Positions 681-59,333 of a stretch of 64,000 bases of DNA are shown here, piece by piece. The notes below the pieces were generated by a model. The model searched no databases. It had not been told where the DNA came from and was given only the letters and a program-made list of their open reading frames with translations. The position numbers and the translations under genes were made by a program. The stretch comes from Cyanidioschyzon merolae (Eukaryota): assembly GCA_000091205.1 (NCBI GenBank), contig AP006501.2; one strand, given 5' to 3'. Position 1 is the first letter of the stretch, and the number at the start of each line of letters is the position of its first letter.

Positions 681-723
681 GTACACAGCCGGAAGCTGTG
701 ACTGAGATTACGCGAAAGCGCTC

Positions 724-8700: not shown

Positions 8701-9991
8701 TTTCGCGTTCATCCCGTATGAACACATTGGCGGTGAGCAGCGGCTCTGCTGTATCCATTGCAAGACGCTTGTGTACCAATTGATCCACTTGATCGACTAC
8801 ATCGAAAACCAGTGCTCCGTCGTCATCCATTGGTATGATAGACAACACCGACGACTGCGACGATTCAGTTGCCTTCTCGCCCTGTGATTGTCGACGCCTC
8901 GTTCCTGCTGCCTCGCTTTCCAGCGTTTCATGCCGGCGTTTTCGTCGCCACGCCGCACTGCTCGCATGCGCTAGACAAGTAACTAGTCGTCGGTGCAGCT
9001 GTCTAAAAAGAATATTCCAGGCTGGCAGCGCCTTCTCGCTCTGACGCAGCAGTGCACGCGTCTGGCGCAGGGCGAAACAACACGCGCCTCGATACCCTGC
9101 AGCTTCAGCAGTAGCTGCGGCCTTCAGCCACAACAGCACGGTTTTCGGTTGGTAGTGCGTTGCCTTCGCGTACGCTTCGAAGGCTGCTGCGGGTTCACCG
9201 ATCCGTTCGTATACTTGTCCCAGGCTCCAGGCGCTCAGGTAACCTAGCCGCTTGATCCACGGGGCATCTCCCCGCTGCGGTCGGGAACTTGCCGACTCCA
9301 ACTTTTGTTGCTCAGCGAGCAGTCGCAAGACTCGTTCAAAACCGCTCGCTGCCTCGCTGAAACGTCCGTCTGCGAAAGCCTCGGCAGCTTGCGAGTATAG
9401 CCCTCGTAGTTCCGGCTCTAGCGGGAGTTTGGACGCAGGTTGATCACGTGTTACTTTGCTGGTTGCTTTCTCAGTTGATTCAATAGCAGATGCTGGCGCA
9501 AACCCCAGCATCTTCACACCCTGAGCCTTGTCAAGTCCAGTGAAGAGTGCGCGGGAACAACACGGCGTCGGTTTTTTTAATGGTGCGCACGAGCTATCAA
9601 CGTTTCGCTTTTTTTCGTTCTTCCGTGGACTCGGTTCAGATGAAAACGGAACCCTGAAGAGCGCGCTCGATTCGTTCATGCCGTCTTTCTTCCCCGGGAT
9701 TTTGGTACCTGTAAAGACTTGATATTCAATGAGCAGCATAGGAAGGTTTGCGGACTCATAGATTGGACTTGGATTCTCGGGCGTGTTTTCAGTTTGGCTG
9801 TTTCGACTTGCCGCCGCTGGGACATGAACGGTTCGCATCATCACGATGATTTGCGACGACCTCGAGCAACAGTTCGCAAAATACCCGAGCTTGTTATCGA
9901 TTCCATACATGGAAACGCCACTGTTCTCGCTTCGCTCTCCATAATATCCTCGAACCTGGTACGCCTCACCTGCTGGATCTTCAATCACCAA
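2783..9991 (-). CDS. Giant 2402-aa protein, low-complexity (Ala/Ser/Gln-rich) with N-terminal TPR-like repeats. It may be an HIR3/CABIN1-like scaffold, but identity is unresolved.
   Basis: One uninterrupted 7.2-kb ORF. TPR-like segment 'WSLGQVYERIGEPAAAFEAYAKATHYQPKTVLLWLKAAATAEAAG'. A polyQ run is encoded by (CTG)n at 8163-8185. The first ~118 codons lie inside the duplicated segment 9636-10958. Confidence 0.55.
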   Translation of the reverse strand: MVIEDPAGEAYQVRGYYGERSENSGVSMYGIDNKLGYFANCCSRSSQIIVMMRTVHVPAAASRNSQTENTPENPSPIYESANLPMLLIEYQVFTGTKIPGKKDGMNESSALFRVPFSSEPSPRKNEKKRNVDSSCAPLKKPTPCCSRALFTGLDKAQGVKMLGFAPASAIESTEKATSKVTRDQPASKLPLEPELRGLYSQAAEAFADGRFSEAASGFERVLRLLAEQQKLESASSRPQRGDAPWIKRLGYLSAWSLGQVYERIGEPAAAFEAYAKATHYQPKTVLLWLKAAATAEAAGYRGACCFALRQTRALLRQSEKALPAWNILFRQLHRRLVTCLAHASSAAWRRKRRHETLESEAAGTRRRQSQGEKATESSQSSVLSIIPMDDDGALVFDVVDQVDQLVHKRLAMDTAEPLLTANVFIRDERETAASFSAKGAHGHVTDARRSPLSSVGAAALPSSGVGDDAASFEQVAGRVATVMRTTTESSSFVQEGVSERVDSGMLRAGACVPAEAQESAPGLTSKKAIVTKLPNKLRASGASESPREGSEAAERQPVEHKHSKRTACESTRGTTSDPVTSLTASTRGRAASATAAVTVNEAMQQQQQQQRGICSTCQGGGVESDPQVVAVATVPPARSSRSGETCSEPNRAGVSTAESESPARRTRRSLRYETEASLRSSSVPRSMIIAGISAGEIPGGAGANGAAPASRLLPSNDQDAASATATPEAAAVLEQLRCQLHDALRDYDATEQQNPASSSQAAQVIESVQETPTARVANATIIDAVRSVGAPFQFHESLLPLTTLVNRILGEALDRMMTIPVRMRTTLARKLCRLYHLWISWHPNGTGSFVLGTPASSAIPQEERAHWWLVWMWRSLALLEVAFWAGDWSLVDDVLTRTRACFDGYMREGLLPSSTIRMLLLIRYMYLHALNLLRQKHWNAAMDALKRALALWEDVQRLQRDHTTVSEAHFVDSAGKRCTSGRLQRVSVSPQEPPTSQQSACAEREALQASSGYNECTIAASMEAEYQTEPSKANESTAAGVSVSQISVPRHAAGQFVADEVHPKDTADDTAHALQNDAATERFGRASGKYPARTETAIQGSVSLGCRNTVAPVTGTTATHALVFEDTSPLCEDMSVTESDAPVERLLRAWRLRRRASASTALLELPEASGNASQLASAEACRAQERCRSVSASTAAENGPEATSACQVLCSWMAGLHPDQLLEHAALPEETSLHLGKIDLLRCLQYAAFEQLWKSLGASEDTFQTEMLDSEAMLMRLLSFLDLPIETVQVRLRQLLSRYAGGAAVVAAQELQRVTLRVTAATASASAAPTARSPDSSPRLEAQAQRSREPSLSRWRKLAALAQSLRRELDALGKATLVVPAQLRHKLYQMLGVSLPRILDLLWDVAPSESIIEQNLHDQLLVEWAAVFGLFVVGRERFIRTHAFSDSDEAVRCSAGAFLHQLLHGLALRLQRGTALSMERRASERMRQACSLLYQLYAGMLWERLSAEQGARWFLGCSLCSPEWDPSWFSRLDWERIQCLHVLYGLDCSAIGLKSGPPVAASCSAWTLARALRPEQMVLPPEALCPALTLGQSELDDVLASRSRPRIRTLWQWTGKLIQAASGIEQRYLLPCYRDLLLYHFRLQMEYLDLEYKRVAEPERRARLLPTELLDALQTLIELLLPFFIGSAALKQDAPQQERCVGRKRLQGLLSPEADNPAPRISPYFRATRHESPGAAKSSTETASETAAAPTPATEMGTAASAPAAATQRKATGSGNASEAGVAAVEAVDPEAVSRDTSASAIDAPSSEAATAAVGIVADHPGKGTIERTEQQLACNSEVSNLEDRRALCPRLDDSELTLALATCMRHAAQFSLETAELIGNANRFRLHRYVEWLLTAHRFAVGVQTIASGGNKHAPDAVIIMTSHSGTAGHASAPEAAASVSCRHATGAKRTPNAHAVHTAAHWEALYCAYLLLPIHIPAAAWDTLAPDTKRAVESARASMPNLLCTLREQAHGKDDTPDAEDAPAAESEVALLLDYWQWLREVGEAAPPVSYASSVERIAERLARYEHALPRLSQQLHGQAQLQYSPWLEYRLAVLANALYQALGWIPSSKSAHPGTTTTRSTRSNGSNDELGSVLTQLAELPSYRSAYLYALGVFCGYQDAARAITALEPLFRVDASSASRHGYFWLMWNHRYLVAPEQLPHAPLLYDNHCFAYWQFRCFALYVRLLECTLRYDTMLALERTLSRRMQRHNALDAECLTLIVERNLFAFANGFAGVACPAAAAQELIQPVTATQLVRPVDLQLVWELYTDAVLVNDLLQDAGSMLDSPDVAWTGSAALVDACPWPLTGHNLPQVGESCGEAVLDLAERLLIIAAEAEGATNEHALQVLQRRCRHWFGRSV

Positions 9992-10958
9992 ACATAAGCG
10001 TGGGCATCGGGGAAGCTATCCAAACCGCTGGCTGGACGGAGAATCGTAGGCGGCTTCGCCACTTTTGTAAGCGGCTTTCACAAGCTGGTGCCTAAAGTTT
10101 ACTGACCCTGTCATGCCACATACTCGATTCTGTTCGAAACACGAATCCTCGTCCGGATATGCCAGCCGACACAATGGAACTCGACAGCAGCCGGATGAGG
10201 GTCACGACGCTTGCTGCCTGAGGCTCCCGACTCTAGTGTGTTCACGGCCAGGGGTCTTGGACTCGGACTCCAGGCATCGAGGCGGTCGTTTCCAATGGAC
10301 TTGTTGTGGTCGCCTTGCACGACGCGCAGGGAGTGCGGACGGATCGACGTTTCTCTACTTGTTCTGTAGGCTGGATTTTCCGTTCGGTCATTGCTTCACC
10401 AAGGGCAATATCGAGTTCGACTTGCTGCGTACCGAGTGGCGCAACGTGCGCTTGCACCAGCATCGAACAGCGTACGCACCGAGGAGATCGCCCAGAAGAA
10501 GCCCGTGGTGGTTCGGTATGACAACGGGCACGGAAACGGAGAAGAGCATCTGTGGAAGCCGCCTGTCGCGGTTAGGGGCATGGAGCGAGCGGCGAAGCAA
10601 GCCCTCACGGTCCATAGAGTGTACGTTATTGGCAAAGGTCTAGAGGTCATACGTGCACACCAGACCGCAAACAAGAGTGACCGCTTGAAAGAGCGCACCG
10701 GGTCTGTATGCAGAGAAGATGGGCATGGCGAACGAAGCGTGGATCGCGACTTGTACCTGTGCCTGATATGGGTCGATGAGAGCTGGAAACTGCGGGACCG
10801 GCACTTCAAACGCTGCCAACGATGTCCATCGCCTGCTGGCAACGGAGCTGGAGTGGCAGGAGTGTCCGGTGTACGCAGGTCCGCAGGAAAGCGACGGGGT
10901 ACGGAAGCGGCTCAAGAAAAGGTCCAAAACCGCAGGTTTCGTTGATCGTACCAAGATA
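9636..10958. repeat. Segmental duplication copy 1 (1.3 kb). It is a near-identical direct repeat of 19796-21118.
   Basis: Both copies start with 'tcagatgaaaacggaaccctgaagagcgcgctcgattcg' and run colinearly at about 98-99% identity for ~1320 bp, offset by 10160 bp. ORFs 10113-10643 and 20273-20803 are almost identical. Confidence 0.9.
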
Positions 10959-13749
10959 CCAAAAATATAGGGAGGGCGTCCGAATGGTCAGTCCTTGGTA
11001 TTTCAGACGGACATGTTAGCAGAGACTTTGAGCGCGGTTGAAAGACGCGGGCACTGCAATGGATCGCTTTCAAGACGAGCTGATGTGCTGCTGGGAAGCT
11101 GACAACGCTGGGTCTCGGCGAACAGCAAGCATCCAGGACTGTTCGTCTGGTAGGTAGACTCAGTGGTGACGAAAATTGGAGCACCATGCTGTCGCATATA
11201 TTGCCCAAGAAGATCGCTTTCTTTGTCTAGATACATCGCTGAGGCCTCGCGTACGATCTGCAGCTCCATACTTTTCCAGTGCCAGTCTCGAAGCGAAGAT
11301 GCCGCCGCTTGGCTCTTAGCCCCTGATCTTCTTTCATCGGATCTACTCAGTGTTTCAGCAAAATGCCCACACTGAGTATTCAACGATGATCTCGATAGGT
11401 CGCTCAAAAAAAGGCCGATGGACTGTATGGGAGCATGATAACTTTCCGGATGGTGATCGAGGCCTTGGAGTTGCGACGCGTAAAGTGCTATGACGCCTCG
11501 TTGCCGTTGGAATCACACCAAAGCAAGCGTCTCGGTTGACGACGGCCTTGCCCTCGGACGTTCGGTCAGCATTCCGTACACGATTTCGTGCATCTGTTTC
11601 AGTTTCATGCTTTCCTTGTATAGAGGTCCCATGGTACGTCGATGCTTGTGGTGTGTGTCTGTCGTCCTGAACGTATGCATGGGAATCGTACAACATCGAA
11701 TTCTGCACTCATCGCATGCTTTCGTCGAAGCAGCAAGAGTGCGACCTCTGCGCGCTCCAGCAAGTCCAGCATCGTAGGCTACAATGACACGACAAGACTC
11801 GGAGGTCATTTCCTTTCCCCATGCAATGAAAAACTCGGCAGAGGCATGCTTCTCGTGTTCTGAAAACTGCAGCTCGTAGCTACTTGAGCACTGTCTCGTG
11901 TAGGCCAGCCATGTGTATCGTCCGCAAGAGCCACTCGGATGTTCATATCCTCACTGGAAGAACCGTAGAAAGCATCTTCCTCTGCCGGACCTGGTACTCA
12001 GGACGTCAAGATAGGTCCTGACGCCGCTATTCCGCTTGTTGGTATGCCTGCTGCCTACGATCCTGCCCAGCTCTCGATGATTACGATCCCTGGGAAAATC
12101 AGATCATATTGCTTGTTCTGCATCGAGCATCAGTGGCGAGGTCATACGAGGGTTTCATCGAAGCATTTCAGAAGCGACTGGACAGCTGGTAGCCCTGCGT
12201 TCACAGCTCCTTCAAAGCGTTGCTTGACGACGTGCGTCCAAGCAAAGGCGGGGTAAGCAAGCTATGCTGGGCGACGATGCGACGCGAGCTTTCGTTGCGT
12301 CCTGCATCCCACATGTTGCGAGATTCTGCGCGTTACTATGTTTCTCATACAGAAACCTGTACAACAGTTTCAGGTTGATATGAACGCTTCGACGGTTCCT
12401 GCTTCCTGTCCCTCGCCGTCCTCTTTTCGGGAAGTTTAGTCGCTTGGTTGTTCTACGGTATCCTCTGCTGTTCAAATTCTCAGCGGAACGGAATAGCTAT
12501 GGTCGCTGTCCTCTGTATCCGTTGTTTACCGCGGACTCAGACTTACCGGATGGATGATGGAACCAAAAATTGCCTTCTCTATGTACAAAACTCCTCTCCC
12601 GCAAGTGCCTCTTCGGCACCCTCTCGTTCATGAACCGAGAGGCGAAAGAGCAGTTTAGGGCTGGTCTAGGTGCTGAGCGCCGCGTCGAAAATCTTGGGTT
12701 TCACAGATGCGAAGGACTCGTCTACTGATCCGTGAGCTTAGAAGCGGCGTTTTACAACGTCGTAGGAGACGCCTTGGACAGGATTGAAGCCAAGAGAATA
12801 GGCTGCCGCGAAGAGCTGCTCGACACCAGTGCCAGCTGCGCATACCTTGACCGCCTTTGGGTGCTGAAAAGCGACATTTTCTCAGGGCGGAACCGAAGAA
12901 TGTAGGAAATGAAAACCCCGAAATGCTTCGAAGAAGCGTGAGGTGCTCATCGATCCCAAGCGTTTGACGACTCGTGGGTGACTAGACAAAAGCATCGTTG
13001 ATGGGCCTGATATCCTTGGAATGCTCAATCATCTCTTCTTTGCGATCAGATGATTTTTCTTCTCTTTAAGGGTCCATAAACAAGCCTACCATTTCTCCCG
13101 AATGAATTTTCATGGAGTGAGACGAACACTCGGTTCTCCTGGAATAAGCGTTCCCATTTCAATACGAAAAATCAATGGAGTGATTAGGATCGTAAGGCGG
13201 TCTGTCGTAAAAGCGCGCTTTTTCTATCTGTGCCCATCCGAGTATCTTCATCGCTGGTTGTATCAAATGTGAAGAAACGTCACAGCCTGTGGATTCGCCG
13301 GTAGTATATCATGGACAACGTATGGGGTGCAATGGATTGCTGAGGATAACGTCGTTTCCATACCATATGATATGTACTGTTATGGGTGCAAGGCGTCCAG
13401 CATAAGGTCGATGAGAAGGTGCGTTCGTGCACCTGCTGTCGGTAGAATGACTCACTTTTAGCTGTAAAGCCTTTTGTCGCCAGCTATCAGTCAATACATC
13501 AAGTGTATCCACGACGTTCTTCTAATCTACAGAATCAACTTCTTTTCTTGGACATTTGCGTGAAAAACAATTCACGTCAACAATAACGTGTTGATACAGG
13601 AGGTCAAGCGCTCGCTGCGCTGACGATCATGCCAGGTACTTGCCCAGCAACGCTGCTCAGAGTCGTAGCGTTGCACGTTCTGCAGCGACGGGACGCGGGT
13701 ATTGATTCCATGGACGACGTGATAGTCTGTTAACGCACTTGGGCATTTC

Positions 13750-19470: not shown

Positions 19471-20151
19471 TCATGGAATTGGCGAGTTTGACTCTACATC
19501 GAGTGTCGGTTGCTTCCGTGGTTGGTGGTAACCATCGTGCAACCCGAGGGTCCCAGGTAGCTTGATTGACCCTGCATCATTAGAAAGGCGACGAGAAGTA
19601 TGCCTTATGGGCGAGCGCCGCTTACCTACTGAGCCGAGTCGGCTACACTCTTCTCGACTCGCGATAAATTTTCCAACGATCGGTTGTTTGGTCGCAAGGA
19701 TTGGTATCAGTGACCAGGCACGTCGCGAGTGCGAATATCTCGTTGATGAAGGAATTGAAACTTGCGCGCTGTGTTGGGCACCAGCACGACACGCCTCAGA
19801 TGAAAACGGAACCCTGAAGAGCGCGCTCGATTCGTTCATGCCGTCTTTCTTCCCCGGGAGTTTGGTACCTGTAAAGACTCGATATTCAATAAGCAGCATT
19901 GGAAGGTTTGCGGACTCATAGATTGGACTTGGATTCTCGGGCGTGTTTTCAGTTTGGCTGTTTCGACTTGCTGCCGCTGGGACATGAACGGTTCGCATCA
20001 TCACGATGATTTGCGACGAGCTCGAGCAACAGTTCGCAAAATATCCGAGCTTATTATCGATTCCATACATGGAAACGCCACTGTTCTCGCTTCGCTCTCC
20101 ATAATATCCTCGAACCTGGTACGCCTCACCTGCTGGATCTTCAAGCACCAA
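19471..20151 (-). pseudogene. Partial duplicate of the 5' end of the giant gene. It is a chimeric 226-aa ORF: its first ~118 aa are ~97% identical to the N-terminus of ORF 2783-9991, then it reads into unique sequence.
   Basis: 'MVLEDPAGEAYQVRGYYGERSENSGVSMYGIDNKLGYFANCC...VPFSSE' matches the giant-ORF N-terminus. It diverges at the duplication boundary (19796). Confidence 0.45.
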
Positions 20152-21118
20152 ACATAAGCGTGGGCATCGGGGAAGCTATCCAAACCGCTGGCTGGACGGA
20201 GAATCGTAGGCGGCTTCGCCACTTTTGTAAGGGCGATCCACAAGCTGGTGCCTAAAGTTTACTGACCCTGTCATGCCACATACTCGATTCTGTTCGAAAC
20301 ACGAATCCTCGTCCGGATATGCCAGCCGACACAATGGAACTCGACAGCAGCCGGATGAGGGTCACGACGCTTGCTGCCTGAGGCTCCCGACTCTAGTGTG
20401 TTCACGGCCAGGGGTCTTGGACTCGGACTCCAGGCATCGAGGCGGTCGTTTCCAATGGACTTGTTGTGGTCGCCTTGCACGACGCGCAGGGAGTGCGGAC
20501 GGATCGACGTTTCTCTACTTGTTCTGTAGGCTGGATTTTCCGTTCGGTCATTGCTTCACCAAGGGCAATATCGCGTTCGACTTGCTGCGTACCGAGTGGC
20601 GCAACGTGCGCTTGCACCAGCATCGAACAGCGTACGCACCGCGGAGATCGCCCAGAAGAAGCCCGTGGTGGTTCGGCATGGCACCGGGCACGGAAACGGA
20701 GAAGAGCACCTGTGGAAGCCGCCTGTCGCGGTTAGGGGCATGGAGCGAGCGGCGAAGCAAGCCCTCACGGTCCATAGAGCGTACGTTATTGGCAAAGGTC
20801 TAGAGGTCATACGTGCACACCAGACCGCAAACAAGAGTGACCGCTTGAAAGAGCGCACCGGGTCTGTATGCAGAGAAGATGGGCATGGCGAACGAAGCGT
20901 GGATCGCGACTTGTACCTGTGCCTGATATGGGTCGATGAGAGCTGGAAACTGCGGGACCGGCACTTCAAACGCTGCCAACGATGTCCATCGCCTGCTGGC
21001 AACGGAGCTGGAGTGGCAGGAGTGTCCGGTGTACGCAGGTCCGCAGGAAAGCGACGGGGTACGGAAGCGGCTCAAGAAAAGGTCCAAAACCGCAGGTTTC
21101 GTTGACAGTACCAAGAGA
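19796..21118. repeat. Segmental duplication copy 2
   Basis: See copy 1. The few differences include 10414 a versus 20574 c, and 'tcgtaccaagatacc' versus 'cagtaccaagagatcc' at the distal end. Confidence 0.9.
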
Positions 21119-23619: not shown

Positions 23620-24690
23620 CTAGCCTGTGTAAGATTGTCCAATATCGTCGAGGACGCTATTGCTAGATTTGAACCTAAAGATATATATACATGCCAACTC
23701 ACAGACGCCTCCGAGTTTCTTACAACAGGCTCCTGCTGTCCGCTTCAGCTTTTCCGTGTACACCTCGAGCTGGAGAGGGTGTCCAGCAATGTTCGCTCGC
23801 ATCACATCCATGGGTCTCGTCTCCAGCACCGCATATCGTCTGATATTCATGGCGGCGTTCAAGTTGCGGTTCACCATTTCCGTTCGTTTATAGTTTCCGA
23901 TGGGACTCATCAATGCGAGGATTCCGAGAACTCGCGCCCCCAGTGCCTTTTGCTGCTCTGTATGGTTCCCGCGCTTTTCTATCGCCGGAGCGCACCGCTG
24001 CCTTATCTCCATCTCGGCCTTCTGAAGTGTACATCCTGGTTCATCCCTCGGATTTTCTATTTCCTCAAATGACCCCGATTGTCTAAGACCTTTGGTGATG
24101 ACCTAGCCGGAGGATGAGGGACTTGCGGAAGAGAGACGACATGTGTCCCGGTGTCACCGTGTGCTGAACGCTTCGGCGATTCGTCCAGTGCAGCGATTGT
24201 TACGTTTCACAATAGAAAACACTCTTCCGATGGAGTTCATCTACGGAGTGCACGGAGGAAGAGCATGCAGCTCTACCCCGATGGCATCGGAAAAAGACCG
24301 AACGCAACGGGTGTGGTCAAATGCCACGTTGTCGAACAGAGCGACGTTGCGAGACGTCAGCGAAAACTCTCTAATGGCTGGACGAAATTGCTGGTGCTGT
24401 TATATGAGCCTTCTGTACGAGCGAAACTAAGGCCGCCAAGTATATCCACTTCAGCTGGAAGAGAGGATAATGTCGTCGTTATCTTCGAGTTCGATCCTGC
24501 ATGGAACGGGCTCTATCTCCGCGACTACCCATATACGCTCCGAACGTCTTGTACGAAAAAAGTTTCATCGATCGAAACAAACCGCTCGATGCCCTCTGCT
24601 TCGTACTGATCGCGAGGTTCCAGGAACCCTGTCGTTGCGATTTCTTGTGGAAGATAGCGGAGTGTGAACTAGAACTTTTTTCCACTGTGT
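23620..24690 (-). mobile_element. TnpB/Fanzor-like gene relic, copy B. RuvC-III Asp is replaced by Asn, and the upstream part is frameshifted.
   Basis: ORF 23620-24012 (-): 'EIRQRCAPAIEKRGNHTEQQKALGARVLGILALMSPIGNYKRTEMVNRNLNAAMNIRRYAVLETRP...GHPLQLEVYTEKLKRTAG'. It aligns residue by residue with copy A ('EMEKCQRSFEDIAKYGPMTGEQMETRANVRGLLALVSTVNGNEKRMEYVNRDFNAALNIRKCAV'). Minus-strand frames at 24479-24685 ('SMKLFSYKTFGAYMGSRG') match copy A 'ERLVVTYGAGRWMTQKG' and copy C 'SMRLSWDETVGAYMDIRG'. Confidence 0.5.
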
Positions 24691-25427
24691 TCTAACGTTT
24701 TTAGGACCACACGAGCAAGCTGTTGCGAAAAATCGACGCGTGTGGCGACTAGCAGCGTCGCTTTTTGCTTTTCGTAAGGTTATCAACGGGTCCGTTGCTA
24801 CCAGTTACCGCAAACACGCTTTGAGCACATCGGTTTTTGGCGCGATGTGCATCTACTTTCTTTCAGTGTCTCTCAACCATCTGACTATTGTGGTATGTCA
24901 TACCTGAAGGAGAAGTGCTGTCCTCATTGCACTGTTCATTAAAGAATATATATATCCTACAGGCAAATCTAATACGATGCATACTGTAAAATGCATTGCG
25001 ATTCCGACCTCCTGCACTGCATCGCACCGGCGGTGGAACGAAACCAAGCTGGATGACGCGAAGCAGGCAGGCAAGGCAAATCATAGATGACTGAATTGTC
25101 TCTTCATTCGCGAATCTCTAACAAACAGCTCGTTCCTCGAAACTCCAGTTCTACACTCTCGCTTTCCAGCACCGTCTGTAGCGATGAACTCTGTCGATAT
25201 GGATCGCTGAGCGTGCTCTGTTTGACTGTCTCGCACGCTGCGGCAGTGGACACGCTCTTAGCTTGACACCTGGTGCAGCAGATGCGACTGCTGTACCTGT
25301 GAAACGGAGCCCGGTCGCCACCGCGCACTAGTCGCCGGGCTGGTTTTCCTGAGATCTGCGTTTCTATTTCTTCCCAGCGACGCTATTTGGAGCGAAATAA
25401 CGCAAACTTTTATTATTAGAGGAGTAA

Positions 25428-29456: not shown

Positions 29457-31277
29457 CTATCTCCGTCCGTGCAAAAGCGCCAAAACAACGCGGCGCATTT
29501 TTTCATACGCTACCTCAATATCATCATTCACAATACGTAAATCGAAACCTGTAATTTTCTCAGCGATATCCATTTCCTGGCGGGCGGCCTCCAGGCGCCG
29601 ATCGAGTTCCGAGGGACTCTCGGTCTCGCGCCGCCGGAGTCGCTGCTCGAGCTCCATCAGCGAGGGCGGTGCAATCCAGATATAGAACGCATCCAATTCC
29701 TGTCGATCCATCATGGTTTGTGCACCCTGCAAATCCAGACTCAGAATGCAAACTCGAGGCGATGGCGATTGCGTAACAGCTCGCACAGCACCAAACGTCG
29801 TCCCGTAGTAGTTGCCGTAAACGCAGGCATATTCGATGAATTTGCCTGCGGCGACATCCGCCAAAAAATTTTCCTTCGACACGAAATGGTAAGACACACC
29901 GTCAACTTCTCCTGGACGCGGCGCTCGCGTTGTTGTCGATACCGAATAGCCCAGATGGTTCGGAAACTCTGCTAGAAGCCGCCCTATGAGCGTCGACTTG
30001 CCCACCCCAGAAGGGCCAGTTACCACAATGGCGGTTACAGCAGGCGGATTTCGCGCCAAATCTGGCAAGTTGCGGGCGCTGCGTGCAGCGCGTCGCGACG
30101 CCACGTCATGGTTGGAGGCGTATTCTGCGTGCTGTGATGCTGCATTGCGCGCTGCGCTCGCTGGTGCGATGCGTGCTGCCTCTGCATAGTCACGTATGGA
30201 AACATACCATAGGGGTATCTTGTACGAGAGAAACCCCAAGATGCATGAAAAGACCTGACTCGATGTCAGCGTGCCTCGCTGCGATAGCACGAGGCTCAGG
30301 ATTGCCACCATGGGCGCCGCATAGCGCGCAGCAGAGAAGACGGACACCGCGCGTGGCTGCTCGGTGGTACTCGCTGGAGCTGCCGCAGCGCCAGCCAGAT
30401 CAGTGGATCCAGCGATGGGCTGCAGGCGATCAACGGATCGCTGTAATAAGCGAAGATAGAGGACGCCAGCCGATGAGCCAGCCGCAAAAGCGAGAGCGTC
30501 GGCGATTCCCGCGCGCAGGAAACAAACACAGACGCCAATGCCGGACGTAACGAGTGTGCCCTGCAGGAGCCACCTCTTCAATTTCTGGTACTCTTGCAGG
30601 CCTTGGTCGCGCTCGGCGATCATCTCTGGGCTCAGCGGTGCGCTCCTAGCGGGTGGCGGAAGCGCCTCTAACGTCCACACTCGGTTCTGTGGGTCATACG
30701 CTACTCTGTCGCATACGACGATTTCGGTGCTCGTGCGCCATACTGTTTTTCGATTCGAACTCTCGATGAACTTGTTGGTATCGCCGACGCGTTCTAATGG
30801 CTTTATATCTGTAATAACCTGGACAGAGTTCGCACGTGGTGTGACGCCCTCCACAACGCCTATGAGACGCTCCTCTCGCCATCTGCCTGGATAGAGCACA
30901 ATATCTCCAACCTGTGGATCGTTACGTATCGCGTTCGCAGCGTTGTCTTGCTGCGCTGTCAACATCCGACTGGTGCTGTGTGGGGCTGCTTCCTGAGCGC
31001 CTCGCTGAAGCAGGCGAACTTGAGGGGCTCGCAGCTGGGCTCTCCGGCTTCTACAACCTAGCGCTGGACGCCGACTGGTGCTTTCACTGCGTCGTTTTTC
31101 GGAAGCGCGTCGCCTCAGCGAGTGGTCAGTCACCCGGCACGCTGTCGAGCGCAGCAAGGGCACGAAACTGAAAGTTGAGCGCGGTGGTCCACGGTGTGCT
31201 GGGTACCGCCTTCGTTCAACGCGACGCCCAAGTCCCCAAGGCGGTGACTCGTATAGTCGCCGTACGTTCGGTGACAT
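29457..31277 (-). CDS. Guanylate kinase (C-terminal ~200 aa) fused to an N-terminal extension of about 400 aa that contains predicted transmembrane segments
   Basis: GK motifs 'IVVTGPSGVGKSTLIGRLL', 'YSVSTTTRAPRPGEVDGVSYHFVSKENF', 'GKFIEYACVYGNYYGTT', 'ILSLDLQGAQTM'. The extension holds hydrophobic stretches 'LVTSGIGVCVCFLRAGIADALAFAAG' and 'PMVAILSLVLSQRG...VFSCILGFLSYKIPLWYV'. Confidence 0.85.
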   Translation of the reverse strand: MSPNVRRLYESPPWGLGRRVERRRYPAHRGPPRSTFSFVPLLRSTACRVTDHSLRRRASEKRRSESTSRRPALGCRSRRAQLRAPQVRLLQRGAQEAAPHSTSRMLTAQQDNAANAIRNDPQVGDIVLYPGRWREERLIGVVEGVTPRANSVQVITDIKPLERVGDTNKFIESSNRKTVWRTSTEIVVCDRVAYDPQNRVWTLEALPPPARSAPLSPEMIAERDQGLQEYQKLKRWLLQGTLVTSGIGVCVCFLRAGIADALAFAAGSSAGVLYLRLLQRSVDRLQPIAGSTDLAGAAAAPASTTEQPRAVSVFSAARYAAPMVAILSLVLSQRGTLTSSQVFSCILGFLSYKIPLWYVSIRDYAEAARIAPASAARNAASQHAEYASNHDVASRRAARSARNLPDLARNPPAVTAIVVTGPSGVGKSTLIGRLLAEFPNHLGYSVSTTTRAPRPGEVDGVSYHFVSKENFLADVAAGKFIEYACVYGNYYGTTFGAVRAVTQSPSPRVCILSLDLQGAQTMMDRQELDAFYIWIAPPSLMELEQRLRRRETESPSELDRRLEAARQEMDIAEKITGFDLRIVNDDIEVAYEKMRRVVLALLHGRR

Positions 31278-31769
31278 GAAGGTAAAGAAAGACTCAACGA
31301 GAAGGCGAACGAGTCAACACACTGCGAGCGGCAGCCAAGTACACTCGTCCCTGTCCGGAAATCCGCATTGCGCAGTGGAGGCAATGCATTCTGCGTCGCT
31401 GGCGCCTGTTATGGATCGTCCTCGGCGCTTGCGCTGTCCTTCATCCATCCAAGATTATAGTCTTTCAGCTCAATTGTGTTTCAATCCCGCTGCGGTTCGT
31501 AGCAGGAGATCGATATTATAATGCAATATACCGGCTAAATCGCAGACGAATTGCATGCAGGTTATATTCTTTTCTGAGTAGTTCAAGGAGATTTGGATTG
31601 CTCCTCCTGGCCAGTCATATCATAGGACTCTGATGGTTCAGGAACACTGAAAGAAACAAGAATATAGGCTCTGCATCAAAAACATGAATTCTCAAGGCGT
31701 GCTTGCGGTAAATGGTAGAAAACGGTCCGTCGATCAGCCTACGGAAAGCGAATAACGATAACAGTTGCT

Positions 31770-32905
31770 GACATGGGCGTTTCTGTTTCTCTGCCCTTGT
31801 TGGTGCGCTCCTGAAAACGCTGGGATCCAATCGCACATAAAGTCCTACCACACGAACAGCCATCATCCACCGAGTTCGCAACTACAGAGTTCCTGGAACG
31901 CAGCGATCGGTATGAATCACAGGAACGTCGGATTGTTTTCACAGTCGATGAGACTTTCTTGGGACGAAACGGTCGGAGCGTATATGGATATTCGAGGTGA
32001 AGGGAGCCCGCTGTATCCAGAATCGAACTCGAAGAGAACGAGGATATTACCGTCTGTTCTAGATGCAGAGGATTCCAGTCGCGGCCTCAGTTTCGCTCGT
32101 GGAGGAGGCTCATAAGACAGCATCCACTTTGTCGAATCATCGAAGACTTTCACCCTGACTCCTGGCGACTTCCTTCTATTGGACAACGTGGCATTTGACT
32201 ATTCGCTTTGCGTTCGGGCTCTTGCCTATTCTATCGGGTTTAGAGCTGCTTCTCATTCCTCGATACGCTCCGTGGCTGATTCAGATGAAAGTATCGTTTT
32301 CTATTGTGAAACCTAATGAGCGCTGCACCAAGCGGATTCCCAAAGCGTTCCGCACCCGGCGACACAAAGGCGCGTGTAGTCTTTCTTCCGTCGGTCCGTC
32401 TCCCGCCAGAAAGGTCCTGAAATAAGGGCATGAATAAGTGCGTCCATTTTCAAAAAAATCCAAGCGAAAGGCATGGACATGGAAGGCGAGGATCCTGGAG
32501 GGCAGTCATTGGTGGATGCCGGAAAAGAACAAAAAGACTCATCAGCTCTCTGACCATCGAGCAGAGAAGAGCATATGACAACGACGACGAAGAAGAAGAG
32601 GAGAGATGTGCAAGAAATGAGGTTTGCCCGTCGAGGCGACAATGAGACTGTAGTGACTCAGCGGGCATGAGTTCAAGGAATCCTCGCATTGATGAGTTCC
32701 ACCTCCGGCAATACACGCATGCCGTTCAGGAACCGAAACTTCAACGCCGCCATCAATACCAGACGATTTGTCGTACAAAAGACGAGAACCGAGAAGCTGA
32801 CACAAGCGAGCTTTTCGGGCAGCCTCTCAGGGTCGAGATGTACGGCGAGAAAGTGAAGTCGATAGCAGGCGGCCTTTCGCACAGGGCTGGGATGCCTTTG
32901 TGAGT
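31770..32905 (+). pseudogene. TnpB/Fanzor-like gene relic, copy C. It carries multiple frameshifts, and RuvC-III reads D->N.
   Basis: Frames pieced from ORFs 31765-32115, 32195-32425, 32430-32645 and 32667-32903: 'SMRLSWDETVGAYMDIRGEGSPLYPESNSKRTRI', 'VQGILALMSSTSGNTRMPFRNRNFNAAINTRRFVV', 'GQPLRVEMYGEKVKSIAGG'. These are colinear with copies A and B. Confidence 0.5.
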
Positions 32906-34980
32906 AGGTGTAAATATGTACGCTGTGGTGGTTGAGCATTTTTGTTTTCAACATCACGTGTAGAAGGCAGGCCTTGACAACGACTTCAAATTGATTTTTC
33001 CGATTTGAGAGTTTTGCTTTCCTGTCCTTCCTGGTCCTCTTCTCGGAGGAAGCTTTCTCTTCTCTGTCTGGTGGATTCGTTTTTTCTCCGTTACCTGGCA
33101 GGGTGGCATTGATGTGGTCGATAGTCAGTACGTCCATCGAACCGGGAAGAAGAGGCTTGCACGAACAGCCGGATCGGCACCATTCGCAGCTTTCTATACA
33201 TTGAACGTTCGTGATTGATGGAATGCGATGTTGCCCGACAACAGGACAGAAGAATTTGGGGGAGCGGAATCTTTGAAGAGTGCTTCAACCAACGATATAT
33301 TGATGTACGATCCCGTCCTTTGGGCGGTTTGTCAGCGACCACTCGATCGAATCACCACCAGGGCGAATGCTTACCTTATGCTCATTTCTTTTTTCTTTTC
33401 GAACACTGGTACATGGAGACTCCTCGAGCACCCATTTGCAGGAGTACCATTTCTCCCGAATCGGCTCTGATCGAGTGAGACAAACACATGCACTTTCTGT
33501 TGGCAGCGATCACGATTCAGGACAAAAACGACAGCAGGTGGTGTAGAATGTGCGACGATCACCCGCAGAAGCGTACTTGTACCTGTGTCCGCTCGTGTCT
33601 CTTCATAGCCAGTCGTTTGAGCGGTACAGAAACTTCACATACTGTGGCTACTTCCATAGTATTTCTCAAAAAACGGATGAAGTAGGAAGGGCTGATAAAG
33701 AGAGATTCATTGGGATGGAGTCTGGGAAGTGCTGCTATGGGTGCAGCACTTTCTGTATATGGGCGGGGTGAAGGGTGCCAGAGCCACTTGCTGAGCGTCG
33801 GATAACTGACTTGGACATGCAAGACCGTTTCACCGTATGCGACGAGCGACAGCGCCATGACATTCCTCGACTTTTAGCCAATCTGCAACATTCATTCGCT
33901 TTGCTCAATCTTCGCATGAAACACGGGCAAAACAGAAAAGGCTCGCTGGTGCAGGTATCCCAGAATTCACTGCTCTGAGTATAATGCCCTTTGACGGGTA
34001 GCAGAGCTTCTTTAGCACCGATCTTTCTGCCAGAATGAAGCGTGCAGTGAGAAAAAACTAGGGCCCACATCTCGTGCTCCTACCTGCGTATTTTTCACGC
34101 ACACAAGAACGAACAGCCTCTTAGCTCATTCTCAGTTTTCTATGCACCCAGCGCACGGACGCTTCTCGTTCTCGTATCTGAGAATGTTCGACGAATCATG
34201 ACGGGATGCGAAGTGTTTTACTAATTTATCAGTGTTTCGGCGACTCGGCTGCTGGCCAATAAGCTTCTGTCAACGTCCTAGATTGGTTGCTATTGAAGCC
34301 ATCCGAGGATAATTCCAAGCGGTGCAATGCAAGAGGGGGCACTCGAGCCGAATTCTCGCCTCAAAGAAAAAATTCTCGATTAGCTCGAATAGCCACGATT
34401 ATGCTTGAGTCTTGAGGCACGAGCTCTCATGCTGACCCATATCCTCCGTAAACTCAGGTGGAATGTATGCAGCGATTACACCAACCCACTCAAGAGCGAT
34501 CGGCAAGCTAGGGAATCGCCCCGAGTGCCGGGTGCACTCCTTTCGTGCGCTCAGCGACGCCGGATGACAAGCACTGCATAAGTCTTCCACGGAGCAAACG
34601 ATAAATAAAAGCTATCCACCGGATGTTCTCATCATCCTGTTGATTTTTGCGTGCGAACAGCAGCGTTCGACATGAGCCAGCACTCAACTGTCGAATACTG
34701 ATCCAGCACGACAGGTCAAGCATCGCGTCAAAACACCAGCCTACGAGAGCAAACGAGTTTTTCGCCACAGCGAACGGCATCCGTGGAGTCTTTGGCGTCT
34801 CATACCAGTGTCGACATCCTATCCACGTTTCCGATACGAATCATGGAAAGAGCACTCACCGGACTCGTGATGCATCGGCCGCGCGAATCGCTCCCCATGG
34901 AAAAATTGGTAATTGTTCCCGGGCTTGACGCTCCGCTGCTCTCCAATTGGAGCATTCTCCATAGCTAACGCATCGAACAC

Positions 34981-37809: not shown

Positions 37810-40800
37810 GTGTGTGTAGGCGTGCATCACACAGCGACTTGGAGAACTGTCTGGATTTGGTACGCGAGTCTAGCCGCAGTGACACCAATACTAGGTGATA
37901 ATCTAAATAGGTTGTACCTGACGGTGCATCTAGAACGCCATTTACAGCTTCCGAGACGTCCGTACTAGATGAATTTCCGGTATGGTTATAGATGAAGGCA
38001 CATTTTGTAAGCACTTTTTTCCGCCAAGATATCCGGAACAGGCTGCGCTCCTGTAAAGTTCCAGTTGTCGATATATTGGCGTTTTCAGCGAACCGCCTCG
38101 CGAGACCTGCGCGATTTCCTTTGAAGACTTGTGTTGAAGTGTATCGCTATGGCACGGTACCGCTCTGAACTCCGGACCGTCCTCCGGATTGCTCACGAGC
38201 GTGTCAGTTCAGGTTCATTCGCAAGTCATTGCGAGCTTCTGCGCTCCTCGAGCGACCTCTACTGAAACAGGTCTGTTTCCATTCCGTGCAACCGCCAGTG
38301 CCGATGACGAATCGCCTCTGGCTGTGGGTGCGGATCTCTTGAGCGATGCTCTACTCATTGGTCAGAGCCCGGTGTTCAAGGACTCGCAGCATTTGACCCG
38401 GATCCAACGCACCAGAAAGCGGAGGTAGAGCTAGGTTTTTTACCAGTCTCTATGTAGACGCAGCTTATAGTTTGCATTAGGCGCTTTGCTGACAGCCAGT
38501 TCCCGTTGCGCGCCAAGTGGTGCTGGATCCGATGCCATCTCGACGAGACTCGCGTAGCCTATGCAGCTGAGTCGATGAACTATGAATTGCCCGACGCTGA
38601 GCTGCTAAATACTATAAATAGATGTCTTTGCTCCTTGACGCTAGCATCTTGCATTTCATGGTCAATACGAGCACGAAATCGATTGCTGCCCCTGAGAGTC
38701 ATACGGACCCACGTGCAGCATCTGGTACATATGAAATCCTCTGGAAAAAGCCTTTTCCTGGGATATCTGGGGAGCATGGACATCCTTCCCAGCTGCTCAG
38801 CGGGGAATGGTAGGCACGTGCATTGCACCAGCACTTTCGCACTCAATGCCGCGACAAATTCGGGATACGAAAAGTGGCACGCGCCCGACGCATACATCAC
38901 GAAAGGCTCTTGAGTGTAGCCCTCGTTCCATATCAGATTCAGATGGATCACTGAGGTGCTCGCGCTGTTCCCCAATGTCGACTCTTTTCAGAACTTTTTG
39001 GTGATGTACAGCCTACATTTTCGAAATGGATCAATAGGGGCTCACGAATTCATACGTATTTCTGGAATGCTCGGTCGCCGTTTTGGAGTGACTCTTTCGA
39101 CGCGTTGCTGCTGGTATTAGTTGCTTCGCCATCATCAGGGCGATTCACGATGCTTTCGAACTAGGGTAAGAAACGTAATCGATATTATGATCCAGTTCAC
39201 ACCTGGGAGCTTCCACGCTTCCGCGTTGCATTCGTGCTGTATACCCAAATGACGTACTCTTCACGTTTGCGATCATTCTGTTTCAAGCGAACTTGTGGGC
39301 GCACAAATTGCAATACTGGATATTCGAGCAAGCAGAATACTCGACGTCGTCCTTTGACGATTCCCTCACGTGCTCGTTTCAGAACAACACGGAGCGTCTT
39401 ATTTCAAACAATCGTTTCGGGTGCAAACCCAAATTCTTCTCTGCTTGGGGCCATCGACGAAACCGCATTCCACAGCACAACGATACCTCTGCAAGTACAT
39501 GCCCTCAATGGCTCACATCGTTTCCCTTTGAATGGGACAAGGTCTTGGACTTTTACTTCAGTCATCGCAGGGATCGTTTCCAGCGGAGTATGCGTAAACG
39601 CCGTACGCGAACGGCGCACAGACTGATCGAAGTCTCTCGAGTTCTTCTTTAGACTGGATTTCGCCTGCAGTACTTGTTTCATCATGGACCAGCACCCTCT
39701 CATGGAGCAGCACGCGCTTGCACGTCCAGAGTACAGGGTACTCGCGAACAAGTCGGCCAGAGCAAGCTCGTGATTGCAGGTTACAGCATCCAGCGGGAAA
39801 ACGGAGGTGCATCGGAGAGACACGTTTTGTATCCGTCGACGGATTGTGCCGAGCGATGGAGAAAGCGTTCATCGGTCATGGAGCGCCCCACGAAGGTTGA
39901 GATACGATGGAAATATGGGAACACATGAGCGCTACAAAGAGCACACCGAAGCTGTATGCAAGGGACATGAAAATGGCAGGCGAACCCCGTAAGTCGTTAT
40001 GGCAACCCTGGCATGAAATGCTTACAAAACAGCCGGGAGCGTCGGAATAAAAAACTTTAACGCTGCGATGAACATCACTTGACTGCTAATACTAGTAAAG
40101 AGAGGGAACTGAGTCACCAATGTATTTAGAGCCGAAAATAAAAGAGAGTGAACGGCACTAATCACAGAAATCGTCCACAAATGCTTGTGTTGATATTCCA
40201 CAAAAGAAGAAATTCAAACTTCGAATGTACACCCAAGTTATATAAATAGACACGCTCCATTGTATCCCGATATGGCCGTATCCTCGGGTTGTGCACAGCA
40301 TAGAGCGCGCCACAAAATTTCATCCCGCATGGAACACTGTCCAGCGACTGTGCCTGCTACCTGCTCACCCGGGGCATCGGAGCTGTATACCATCGGACGC
40401 CCCATGAGATGAAGCGTCTGCAGCGCCAGTCGACGGATGCGTGCCACCACGAGCATGGATGCACAAAAGTTCAATACGATCTATTTATGTACATTTTGGA
40501 TCGAAATGGTTCTGCGCGGAGATACACGCACTGGCGCTTCTATCTCGGCAGCTACGGCCACGCGTCCGTGCCATCGCGAGCGCGCGGCTCTCGGCAGGCT
40601 GGACGTGAAATAGCTCAAATTTACGCCTTATCGAGTAGTTGTCCTTGCGTAGTCTCTGCTCCACAACCTATCTGACGCATGGCAAACGAAGACAAACCGG
40701 GAGCAACCCAAGAAACTGGAAGAACTAGTCGACTGCAGGATATGGCCGAGCGGTTCATGGCGGCGGGTGTCGGTACGTCGAGAGCCGGTTTCGACTTCGC

Positions 40801-42830: not shown

Positions 42831-43232
42831 CTTGTTGTTGACCGGGAATTTCTCTGAAGCGCGGAGCTTCCGATGGCGATTGTGAATCCCTGTGCCGATC
42901 CATACTGCCGTACTTGTTGTTGACCGAGAATTTCTCTGAAGCGGGGAGCTTCCGATGGCGATTGTGAATCCCTGTCCCGATCCATACTGCCATACTTGTT
43001 GTTGACCGAGAATTTCTCTGAAGCGCGGAGCTTCCGATGGCGATTGTGAATCCCTGTCCCGATCCATACTGCCATACTTGTTGTTGACCGAGAATTTCTC
43101 TGAAGCGGGGAGCTTCCGATGGCGATTGTGAATCCCTGTCCCGATCCATACTGCCATACTTGTTGTTGACCGAGAATTTCTCTGAAGCGGGGAGCTTCCG
43201 ATGGCGATTGTGAATCCCTGTCCCGATCCATA
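42831..43232. repeat. Minisatellite: 82-bp unit in about 5 tandem copies
   Basis: 'cttgttgttgaccgagaatttctctgaagcg[c/g]ggagcttccgatggcgattgtgaatccctgtcccgatccatactgccata' recurs at 42831, 42913, 42995, 43077 and 43159. The unit length is not a multiple of 3, which explains the three overlapping minus-strand ORFs 42738-43279 with rotating repetitive peptides. Confidence 0.9.
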
Positions 43233-43853
43233 CGTCCGTTATGCGTCCACGCTCGGCGCATGCGATGACTCGTCGGCAAGAGGCCTTGTCAAGCTACATC
43301 GGGCACGTGAATCGATCCGTCGTTCGCCAAGACACCCAAACACTCCACCAGACCTATGAGCGAGGGTCAAGCACAGCGGACCTTCTCCGGACCCACTCGT
43401 GAACTTCAGGGCAATTGCCTTGCTTCGTTTTCGTACTCCTGGGGCGAGCGACTCGCATGCAGTCTATGTTTGATAGCGGGATCACCAACCCCTGCACATT
43501 AGGCGCGCACGACAAGCTCGGCTCTCGTTGGAACACACAAAATCACAATAATTTCTGGGGAGCAGTATGTCTGGCATCAGGTGAAACTCGTACCTAGAGC
43601 GGTGAATCATGGATGCGCTGCGGTATGCAGATACCAATCCCGGAATCGGGGATCTCTTGTCAGTGGCATCGGTCTGTTGATCGAAAAAAAAAACTGAACC
43701 TCCACGAAATCGAGTTCAACGCGGCGCCAAATCATTCAACGTCGTTTCTCTGCAACAGCACGCAACTACGGTACTGTTTCCAAGCAAGCCGGGGTCTGCT
43801 CTTGCCCCGCACTGCCGCCGCTGGAAAGAACTGCTTGTGTACCTGTTTCACCA

Positions 43854-46289: not shown

Positions 46290-47363
46290 CTACGAAAAGA
46301 GGCGGCATAGGGCAGCTCGCTCAAGATTCGCTTCGATTGCCTTGGATGCCGACAGGTAGTACCATTCTTTCTTGCTCTGCCCAGTTAAGTAACTCTTTGC
46401 ATCTCCGTATTCAAAGAAATAAGGTGGCCAGAGCACTCTTGTAGTCGCCTTGTTATATATGACATCCACATCCGCGACGCCTCCCGATTGAATAACCTTG
46501 TTCACATCGATTGTGCTCAGACTCGCGTCCAGACGAAACCGCTGAAGAATCTGCTCTGCACCGAGCGCCGATATCGCGTATGCTGCAGTGCCATAAGTTA
46601 GATGCCGAATATGGGGCAGCACAAATCTCGCAGTACAATTGATGCCCAGAGTCTCGAGCTTGAGTTCCTCAGAATAGCCAGCACGCAGCAGAGACACCAG
46701 CTTCAATTCCATCTGTAAGACTGGTCGGTCTTTGGTACATGCTGCTGCAGCAAGATCGGCAACATTGCTTTCCCATAGCGGCAGAATTTCTAGCGAGGCG
46801 TCGTCTTCAAGTAAGAGCGCTGTTCGACAACCCGCACTGCGGACCCAGAGCAGTGCCAGTAAGTGCGAAACGGAGCACGCAACCTGCGCGTCTATTGACT
46901 CCAACTTGACCGGACCTGTGAACGCGAAGACGCGTTCCTGTCTTTCTGCCAAGGACCCAGTTTCGGCTATATCCCTTCGGTAAGCATCTTTCAGGTCCAC
47001 CTCTGAAACGCCTTGCAGGTGCAGCACGTTCGGCTGATGAGCGAACCATTGAACGACTTGCGCGAGCCCCGGGCTCCGTGGCGTCTTCTCGAGGCCTACG
47101 ACCACGAGACAGTGATCTTTTCTATCCAGCGATAGCTTTTCCAGAACCTGCTCCGTCAGTTCGTCACCTGTCTTCCAAAGGCGAAACGCGGGTTTCTCGA
47201 GTGCCGCGCTCACAGAAGGCAGCCGCCGCCGCTGCACGAAAAGGCGCCGGTGCAGCACCAGCGTTGCAGCGATGAGCACCAAGGCTACCAGAACAAGCAC
47301 CCGCAGGACCCGCCTCGATAACGGTCGACAGACAAGATATTCCATATTTTTGTCCTCACGCAT
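46290..47363 (-). CDS. Type II membrane protein, glycosyltransferase family 25-like
   Basis: N-terminal signal anchor 'VLRVLVLVALVLIAATLVL'. The segment 'ACSVSHLLALLWVRSAGCRTALLLEDDASLEI' resembles the GT25 'GCxxSHxxxW...xLIxEDDxxF' core. Confidence 0.35.
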   Translation of the reverse strand: MREDKNMEYLVCRPLSRRVLRVLVLVALVLIAATLVLHRRLFVQRRRLPSVSAALEKPAFRLWKTGDELTEQVLEKLSLDRKDHCLVVVGLEKTPRSPGLAQVVQWFAHQPNVLHLQGVSEVDLKDAYRRDIAETGSLAERQERVFAFTGPVKLESIDAQVACSVSHLLALLWVRSAGCRTALLLEDDASLEILPLWESNVADLAAAACTKDRPVLQMELKLVSLLRAGYSEELKLETLGINCTARFVLPHIRHLTYGTAAYAISALGAEQILQRFRLDASLSTIDVNKVIQSGGVADVDVIYNKATTRVLWPPYFFEYGDAKSYLTGQSKKEWYYLSASKAIEANLERAALCRLFS

Positions 47364-58574: not shown

Positions 58575-59333
58575 ACAACGGAAATTATGGACCTTGGAAC
58601 CTGTACGTAGGGTGACGAGCGATGGATGCTAACCAGCATACCGGTCTCCGTGCCACTATGAAGCATTCGTGGTTACGATAAACATCCTATCAAATAAAAC
58701 AAGAACTTGAATAGAGCGAATCAGCGACGTACTGCACAAACACGACGTTTGGAGCGGCAGATACGACGGAAATTATGGACCTTGGAACCTGTACGTAGGG
58801 TGACGAGCGATGGATGCTATCCAGCATACAGGTCCCCGTGCCACTATGAAGCATTCGTGGTTACGATAAACATCCTATCAAATAAAACAAGAACTTGAAT
58901 AGAGCGAATCAGCGACGTACTGCACAAACACGACGTTTGGAGCGGCAGATACGACGGAAATTATGGACCTCGGAACCTGTACGTAGGGTGACGAGCGATG
59001 GATGCTATCCAGCATACAGGTCCCCGTGCCACTATGAAGCATTCGTGGTTACGATAAACATCCTATCAAATAAAACAAGAACTTGAATAGAGCGAATCAG
59101 CGACGTACTGCACAAACACGACGTTTGGAGCGGCAGATACGACGGAAATTATGGACCTTGGAACCTGTACGTAGGGTGACGAGCGATGGATGCTATCCAG
59201 CATACCGGTCTCCGTGCCACTATGAAGCATTCGTGGTTACGATAAACATTCTATCAAATAAAACAAGAACTTGAATAGAGCGAATCAGCGACGTACTGCA
59301 CAAACACGACGTTTGGAGCGGCAGATACGACGC
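58575..59333. repeat. Tandem array: 188-bp unit in about 4 copies
   Basis: 'gaaattatggaccttggaacctgtacgtagggtgacgagcgatggatgct...' recurs at 58581, 58769, 58957 and 59145 (period 188). Identical 63-aa ORFs recur at 58707, 58895, 59083 and 59271. The array ends about 100 bp before the likely start of the lunapark-like gene. Confidence 0.95.

Follow-up and report, generated by a model that had tools for sequence, protein, structure and literature searches.

The window, that is, the whole 64,000-nucleotide stretch of DNA that was analysed, is part of chromosome 19 of Cyanidioschyzon merolae 10D, and six of its long ORFs were identical to annotated proteins of this strain (CMS genes, for example CMS489C at 46290–47363). 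The locus under study, copy C, lies within a 3.7-kb stretch without annotated genes, between a guanylate kinase gene (29457–31277, minus strand) and the next gene. A leader, a transposase pseudogene, a short "stub", the end of a Fanzor1 gene and a terminal non-coding segment follow one another in the same orientation (Table 1). Related copies, named A, B, D and E, were present in the same window.

Two features of the surroundings were observed in passing. The first 80 or so residues of the guanylate kinase (annotated at 606 aa) are Arg-rich and junk-like, and in many metagenome orthologues the predicted protein has 525 aa and starts at a Met further downstream; the start codon in 10D may be over-extended toward the transposon relics. 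Elsewhere in the window, a 1.3-kb segment was duplicated with 98% identity (9628–10956 and 19788–21116). It covers the 5' end and the upstream region of a 2402-aa ORF (2783–9991, minus strand), giving a shortened 226-aa ORF at 19471–20151, and a third partial copy with 68% identity was found at 39541–39687. Two near-perfect tandem arrays at 42831–43239 and 58574–59332 contained an 82-bp unit repeated about five times and a 188-bp unit repeated about four times, respectively (94–98% identity).

Table 1. Segments of copy C and related copies in the window.
Feature	Position	Strand	Evidence or content
5' leader of copy C	31455–31525	+	paralog homology begins here (TATAGTCTTTCAG...) in 4- and 7-copy alignments
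Transposase pseudogene of copy C	31526–32433	+	frameshift-aware profile alignment, six-frame hmmsearch, tblastn, Pfam DDE_3
Stub of copy C, ATG and Lys/Glu-rich stretch (MDMEGEDPGG...)	32473–32595	+	DNA homology to the Fanzor1 gene start of CMe-1A-type elements
Fanzor1 C-terminal relic of copy C (profile ~545–620)	32596–32909	+	hmmsearch, tblastn, translation
3' terminal non-coding segment of copy C	32910–32957	+	paralog alignment homology stops past ...ATCAC; end fuzzy by ~20 nt
Copy A, truncated by the window edge: last (3') third of a CMe-1A-type Fanzor1 element, from profile 454 to the end	1–692	+	83% nt identity to L001 5069–5760; hmmsearch E 7e-66
Copy B, paralog of C	23683–25015	−	transposase pseudogene 24988–24095; Fanzor tail 24102–23710
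Copy D, more complete composite, divergent subfamily	11410–13521	−	transposase relic 13521–12642; Fanzor profile 5–112 at 12449–12110 and 393–599 at 12097–11410
Copy E, abutting the 3' end of C	32940–33858	−	transposase relic 33858–33200 (profile 13–231); Fanzor N-terminal fragment 33059–32940 (profile 7–46)

The transposase pseudogene

When frameshifts were allowed for, copy C aligned between 31529 and 32424 with positions 2–299 of a profile of its intact transposase relatives, with a score of 623.6. The frame was interrupted by 10 frameshifts and three in-frame stops, ended at a stop codon at 32431–32433, and began with ATA instead of ATG. Its pieces reached an E-value of 8.8e-18 in a six-frame hmmsearch, and in tblastn copy C was matched by relatives of approximately 300 aa (P0298, P0301 and P0319). 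The intact relatives P0298, P0301 and P0310, also of about 300 aa, showed N-terminal HTH matches and exceeded the 100-bit cut-off of the NCBIfam IS630 equivalog NF033545 (127, 121 and 108 bits, respectively). P0319, to which positions 31526–31834 were 50% identical, matched HTH_Tnp_Tc3_2 (PF01498) with 31.6 bits for a cut-off of 31.5. The Pfam domain DDE_3 (PF13358) was found in a consensus of four family copies with E 3.2e-18 (66 bits, cut-off 28.6) and in the stitched translation of copy C itself with E 2.5e-4. The catalytic domain of Sleeping Beauty gave a weak match to the IS630-like transposase.

The four-paralog consensus could be read in one frame (...FSVDETFFGRNGRSVYGYS...LLLDNVAFDHSRCVRAFADSIGLELLFIPRYAPLLNPIEGVFSIVKR...) with 35 residues from the second D to the E (DD35E), which is the signature of IS630/Tc1-mariner transposases. 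In copy C, the first catalytic D was found at 31947–31949 (TVDET) and the second at 32182–32184 (LLLDNVAFDY); the catalytic E was replaced by K at 32288–32290 (LNPIE to LIQMK), so that the D, D, E triad is not intact. The segment is an IS630/Tc1-mariner-type DDE (DD35E) transposase pseudogene, full length but ruined, and is not a Fanzor sequence.

An antisense gene was considered for the 152-aa opposite-strand ORF of copy B (24151–24609), which has counterparts in C. It showed no Pfam match and no codon periodicity, and it was rejected as the reverse complement of the transposase frame. A more distant DDE_3/IS630-type transposase relic was observed at 56827–57477 on the minus strand (24–26% identity to P0298 and P0301, hmmsearch E 4e-4), with no adjoining Fanzor piece detected.

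The sequence-only reading had taken the whole of 31770–32905 for a single Fanzor/TnpB gene that was colinear with intact copies and differed from them only in having been disrupted by in-place frameshifts. The homologous peptide segments that it had noticed in multiple plus-strand frames do exist; they occupied all three frames and were homologous to locus B. The supposed colinearity with Fanzor/TnpB over approximately 1.1 kb did not hold. In a purpose-written frameshift-tolerant profile-to-DNA aligner with shuffled controls, 31400–32640 scored 39.6 against the Fanzor1 profile, marginally above chance (shuffles 32.9 ± 2.8, maximum 38.8), and the best segment, 32427–32634, corresponded to the transposase stop, the spacer and the stub, outside the transposase-coding 31526–32424. 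The only trace favouring a single gene was a weak, non-significant likeness to the region after RuvC-I, seen in copy B ('...SAIFHKKSQRQGSWNLAIS' against the profile 'sgifkarkkte.kWnkgi'), with a score of 45.6 for shuffles of 33.4 ± 4.6 reaching 47.9. Against it, 31526–32433 aligned over its full length to the DDE transposase profile with a score about 15 times higher, the stop-to-stop pieces upstream of 32671 held no significant Fanzor match (best E 8.9, not colinear), and the motif order of the paralog consensus was DE...DN...PIE and not DPG...E...RD. The DDE_3 match, the tblastn matches to transposase relatives and the transposase profile alignment refute a Fanzor identity of 31526–32433, and the probability of one Fanzor gene across the whole interval is negligible. 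The Fanzor1-derived relic is confined to the last 310 nt or so of copy C (32596–32909), and about 660 of the 1135 flagged bases belong to the frameshifted transposase pseudogene.

Stub, Fanzor1 tail and leader

A Fanzor1 HMM of 653 nodes was run on all stop-to-stop six-frame pieces of the window. It matched copy C only at 32671–32853 (profile 559–609), with E 1.8e-8, or 8.3e-8 in the six-frame hmmsearch. The tail corresponds to the last 95 or so codons of Fanzor1, in two frames and with one internal stop, and was also matched in tblastn by the copy A ORF, CMe-1A-type fragments and the reconstruction of L001, a CMe-1A-type locus. Homology to copy A and CMe-1A began only about three codons before the 'RGLLAL' motif. 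The RuvC-III-like motif NRNFNAAINT reported earlier is real; it lies at 32731–32760 inside the piece matching the Fanzor1 profile, and in translation its catalytic D has become N. Since the consensus of seven copies (FVNRDFNAAIN) restores RDFNAAIN, the ancestor had the RuvC-III Asp. Upstream of the tail, no significant match was found to the RuvC-I Asp (DPG motif), expected some 250 aa before RuvC-III, and the transposase gene occupies that position; the RuvC-II Glu ([TS][TS] motif, 'DEFRTS') and the zinc-finger region were absent from copy C.

The stub consensus of the family was 70–71% identical over approximately 105 nt to each of four CMe-1A-type loci (blastn, E 2e-7 to 8e-7), exactly at the start of their Fanzor gene. 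The stub of copy C itself showed 69.6% identity over 92 nt in blastn, and tblastx matches in three frames. This homology, about 70% over some 100 nt of Lys/Glu-rich (purine-rich) sequence, existed only at the DNA level and with CMe-1A-type loci, a broad Fanzor N-terminal profile giving no significant match. At the other end, the first 28 nt of the leader were found again within the 5' part of CMe-1A-type Fanzor elements (23/28 identical, score 18 for a shuffle maximum of 13, 0/300). From this leader segment to the Fanzor gene start there were only about 57 nt in the CMe-1A-type elements, compared to about 1 kb, including the transposase gene, in the family of copy C.

Paralogs, deletion and decay

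Blastn of 31300–33400 against the window retrieved one other locus, copy B, with 69.2% identity over 936 nt (31502–32416 against 25015–24100, E 4e-90) and 69.4% over 258 nt (32663–32917 against 23939–23683). Alignment at the DNA level beyond short motifs, which had been expected of three loci, was obtained for B and C; copy A has only the last 240 nt or so in common with C. In tblastn the copy A ORF (57–530), which ends in NRDFNAALNI, was 55% identical to B over 78 aa and 51% identical to C over 43 aa, only in the 3' parts of both.

To find further members, metagenome contigs were scanned for exact occurrences of a 21-mer common to B and C, which brought up orthologous contigs with 99% identity as well as new paralogs. 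Six-frame searches with the transposase and Fanzor profiles over the retrieved loci showed one layout in at least seven paralogs. In B, C, F1 (L008), F2 (L014), G1 (L021), G2 (L025) and G3 (L027), the transposase was followed some 230–360 bp downstream, on the same strand, by positions ~555–607 only of the Fanzor profile; the tail of F2 carried a further deletion. Because at least seven paralogs have this deleted layout in common, the deletion is older than the copies. RuvC-I and RuvC-II were lost before the family spread, and the deleted element of about 1.5 kb multiplied as a unit. The idea of a gene decaying in place thus applies to the frameshifts and stops of copy C and not to its missing RuvC-I and RuvC-II motifs. 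The ancestral extent of at least 1.1 kb suggested by the sequence-only reading is also superseded, as the family unit measures about 1.5 kb (31455 to ~32957) and the ancestor would have been at least 3 kb long. Copy B keeps about 40 more Fanzor codons (EPGCTLQKAEME...) and has a shorter stub than C, and because of this it may come from a separate deletion; at least two deletion events, or later indels, would then be needed. The stretch after RuvC-II is also kept in B (EPGCTLQ...), the RuvC-II motif itself being missing.

A transposase-only element might instead have landed beside an unrelated Fanzor fragment, the two being neighbours by chance and not one element. The region is a transposon graveyard in which nested insertions clearly occur, copy E lying directly downstream of C in the opposite orientation. 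However, the transposase–stub–tail junction recurred with similar spacing and continuous DNA homology in at least seven paralogs with unrelated flanks, and F1 aligned with copy C over 1,432 contiguous nt, junction included, which makes a fortuitous juxtaposition very improbable. We regard copy C (~31455–32957, plus strand), with a probability of about 0.85, as a dead member of a composite DNA-transposon family of about 1.5 kb, in which an IS630/Tc1-mariner-type DDE transposase gene (~300 aa, DD35E) precedes the first ~40 and the last ~95 codons of a Fanzor1 gene.

Several observations concern nesting. Directly to the left of C, a weak match to Fanzor profile 111–152 was seen on the minus strand at 31312–31437 (…RISGQGRVYLAAARSVLT against RhlgDrniYsagaikylT; 2/400 shuffles reached its score), and directly to the right, on the same strand, lies the Fanzor fragment of copy E; copy C may have inserted inside the Fanzor gene of copy E. 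In L027, the B/C-type copy (3914–5164, plus strand) was followed by an opposite-strand Fanzor fragment (6079–6604, minus strand, profile 321–487), resembling the C/E arrangement, which may hint at insertion into Fanzor elements.

The family copies differed from the seven-copy consensus by approximately 17–19%, evenly across the three codon positions. No codon-position bias was present in the differences between B and C or between the seven copies and the consensus, and this flat distribution indicates a neutral decay of the copies. Their in-place changes are neutral point mutations and small indels.

It is conceivable that the Fanzor tail was kept for a function in cis, as the right end and/or an omega-RNA scaffold gene, or that the shortened gene encoded a small working protein. 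The B/C type and CMe-1A, although distinct families in other respects, have the 3' 240 nt or so in common, and in C, G1 and G3 a single reading frame linked the ATG of the stub to the RuvC-III region. In TnpB/Fanzor systems, the gene for this guide-RNA scaffold overlaps the 3' end of the nuclease gene. Omega-RNAs have been located at Fanzor 3' ends in published work (PMC10530073). Ten aligned tails, however, showed no conserved RNA structure (RNAalifold −5.4 kcal/mol, no covariation support), Rfam and tRNA scans of the window gave no match, and in the seven copies compared to the consensus the tail was no better conserved than the transposase part and had no codon-position bias. An in-frame "mini-Fanzor" ORF was rejected, the majority consensus losing the single frame through the repetitive Lys/Glu region. 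A tail retained in cis or as a mini-protein is accordingly quite unlikely. A broader proposal would make the ~1.5 kb family an autonomous IS630-like transposon keeping a "mini-Fanzor" module, made up of the start of the gene joined to its RuvC-III end together with the 3' ~240 nt common with CMe-1A. The tail would then serve both families as the guide-RNA scaffold and right end they require, and the transposase would be the enzyme mobilising the ~150 "unclassified" CMe-1A Fanzor elements; we consider this proposal unlikely. Retention of the tail as guide RNA, end module or mini-protein is speculation.

Tc1/mariner elements are characterised by terminal inverted repeats (TIRs) and TA target duplications. 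The family boundaries showed no TIRs in four copies, nor, by eye, in the seven-copy alignment. TA dinucleotides were present near both ends of copy C (…GAT/TA/TAGTC… and …CGTG/TA/GAAGG…), at boundaries uncertain by about 20 nt.

CMe-1A, the proposed ancestor and known composite elements

Copy A had about 190 close relatives among metagenome proteins. Locus L001 contained a frameshifted Fanzor gene of ~640–700 aa, and searching with its reconstruction yielded full-length relatives of 580–700 aa. A profile of 35 such relatives matched the Fanzor1 structures 9cf0 (Parasitella parasitica, E 1.7e-17) and 9cer (Guillardia theta, E 0.011); a single reconstructed CMe-1A-type protein found no match in Pfam or PDB, and the 35-sequence profile was needed to reach these structures. 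The profile matched the solved nucleases across the REC/WED–RuvC region and the RuvC-III end. Unlike them, copy C has neither RuvC-I nor RuvC-II; what it keeps corresponds only to the final ~95 residues, in which RD has become RN.

CMe-1A is a Fanzor1 family of C. merolae with about 150 copies, each about 80% identical to a consensus of about 3 kb; it was left unclassified, has no TIRs or target site duplications (TSDs), and includes some intact copies (Bao & Jurka 2013, PMC3627910). Our comparisons were made against CMe-1A-type loci such as L001. The family of copy C, found in the same genome, is linked to CMe-1A by the shared 28-nt leader segment, the stub and the 3' 240 nt or so, where the tail of copy C was 71–72% identical to the CMe-1A 3' end; the stub resembles the gene start and the leader segment the 5' region. 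The ages appear similar (~17–19% from the consensus, compared to ~20% reported for CMe-1A) and neither family has TIRs. CMe-1A, however, is about 3 kb long and carries a full Fanzor1 gene and no transposase, whereas the family of copy C measures about 1.5 kb and has a transposase and only the two ends of Fanzor1. By comparison of sequences, copy C belongs to a related family and is not a CMe-1A copy, since only three segments are homologous, at ~70–72% instead of the ~80% expected along the element. Upstream of four full-length CMe-1A-type copies, neither a transposase nor an intact transposase + Fanzor1 composite was found.

Two peculiarities of the CMe-1A-type 3' ends were observed. A peptide past the stop after '...EKRPPE' (TRxNFxGQPLKVELYEKKL...GRRLHV; window 528–690, L001 5590–5777) was conserved across the copies and the B/C-type tails, and the stop was read through in some copies (P0011, and L017, where the codon is one for Ser). 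In the ancestral Fanzor1, the C-terminus probably extended about 45 aa beyond that of the copy A ORF. The part coding for '...VLEKRPPE' (98–125 region of the tails, for example window 480–505) contained a potential hairpin, CTGGAG-N7-CTCCAG, in 5/5 CMe-1A-type tails; this hairpin was not conserved in the B/C-type tails.

Four loci of the window (B, C, D and E) carry different Fanzor pieces downstream of a transposase. The N-terminal Fanzor piece of copy D scored 76.9 (shuffles 28.6 ± 3.3, 0/200) and the Fanzor piece of copy E reached E 5e-7. Read from these arrangements, copy D, with both an N-terminal and a C-terminal Fanzor portion behind its transposase, points to an ancestral transposase + Fanzor1 transposon, and copy E is consistent with it. 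Among the loci retrieved, no intact element with a transposase and a full-length Fanzor1 was found, and the ancestor is rebuilt from relics. We propose that this transposon would have carried the transposase and a complete Fanzor1 gene in the same orientation, an arrangement known from Mariner + Fanzor1 elements. In one derivative, ~500 codons would have been deleted from the middle of Fanzor1, among them those for RuvC-I, RuvC-II and the zinc-finger region; this derivative would have kept the transposase and then multiplied by cut-and-paste transposition, presumably mobilised by its own enzyme. The other, CMe-1A, would have kept Fanzor1 and lost the transposase. After its insertion, copy C decayed neutrally, losing its start codon and catalytic Glu, acquiring 10 frameshifts and three stops, and changing the RuvC-III Asp to Asn; no part of it can function today.

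The annotation of the locus is corrected to that of a transposase pseudogene for the most part, not a Fanzor pseudogene, and its missing RuvC motifs reflect an inherited deletion, not local decay. Copy C is ordinary transposon debris, a kind of relic known before. Together, B, C, D and E, all in one 64-kb window, and the further paralogs connect the Fanzor1 lineage of C. merolae, which had been left without a classification in 2013, with an IS630/Tc1-mariner transposon. They also provide a candidate transposase for CMe-1A mobilisation; the copies seen here are all dead, and the practical and conceptual gain is therefore small.

The transposase resembles the IS630/Tc1-mariner enzymes in its HTH-HTH-DDE domain order, its length of about 300 aa and the DD35E spacing of the family consensus; it departs from them in that the third catalytic residue and the reading frame of copy C are destroyed and no TIRs were detected. 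Composite elements have been described elsewhere: PGv-1 and PUl-1 are Mariner-type elements with both a transposase and Fanzor1 (Bao & Jurka 2013, PMC3627910), and Fanzor1c–Mariner/Tc1 associations were reported by Jiang et al. (2023, PMC10530073). Unlike the family studied here, for which neither was found, those elements possess TIRs and TA duplications. The copies in the window are all dead, and the lineage of copy C is without the nuclease core. The described elements have in common with the arrangement seen in copy D a DDE transposase of the IS630–Tc1–mariner superfamily followed by Fanzor1 downstream in one element. The new point is modest: the unclassified Fanzor family of C. merolae is linked to an IS630-like transposon, an association already documented for Fanzor1 elsewhere.
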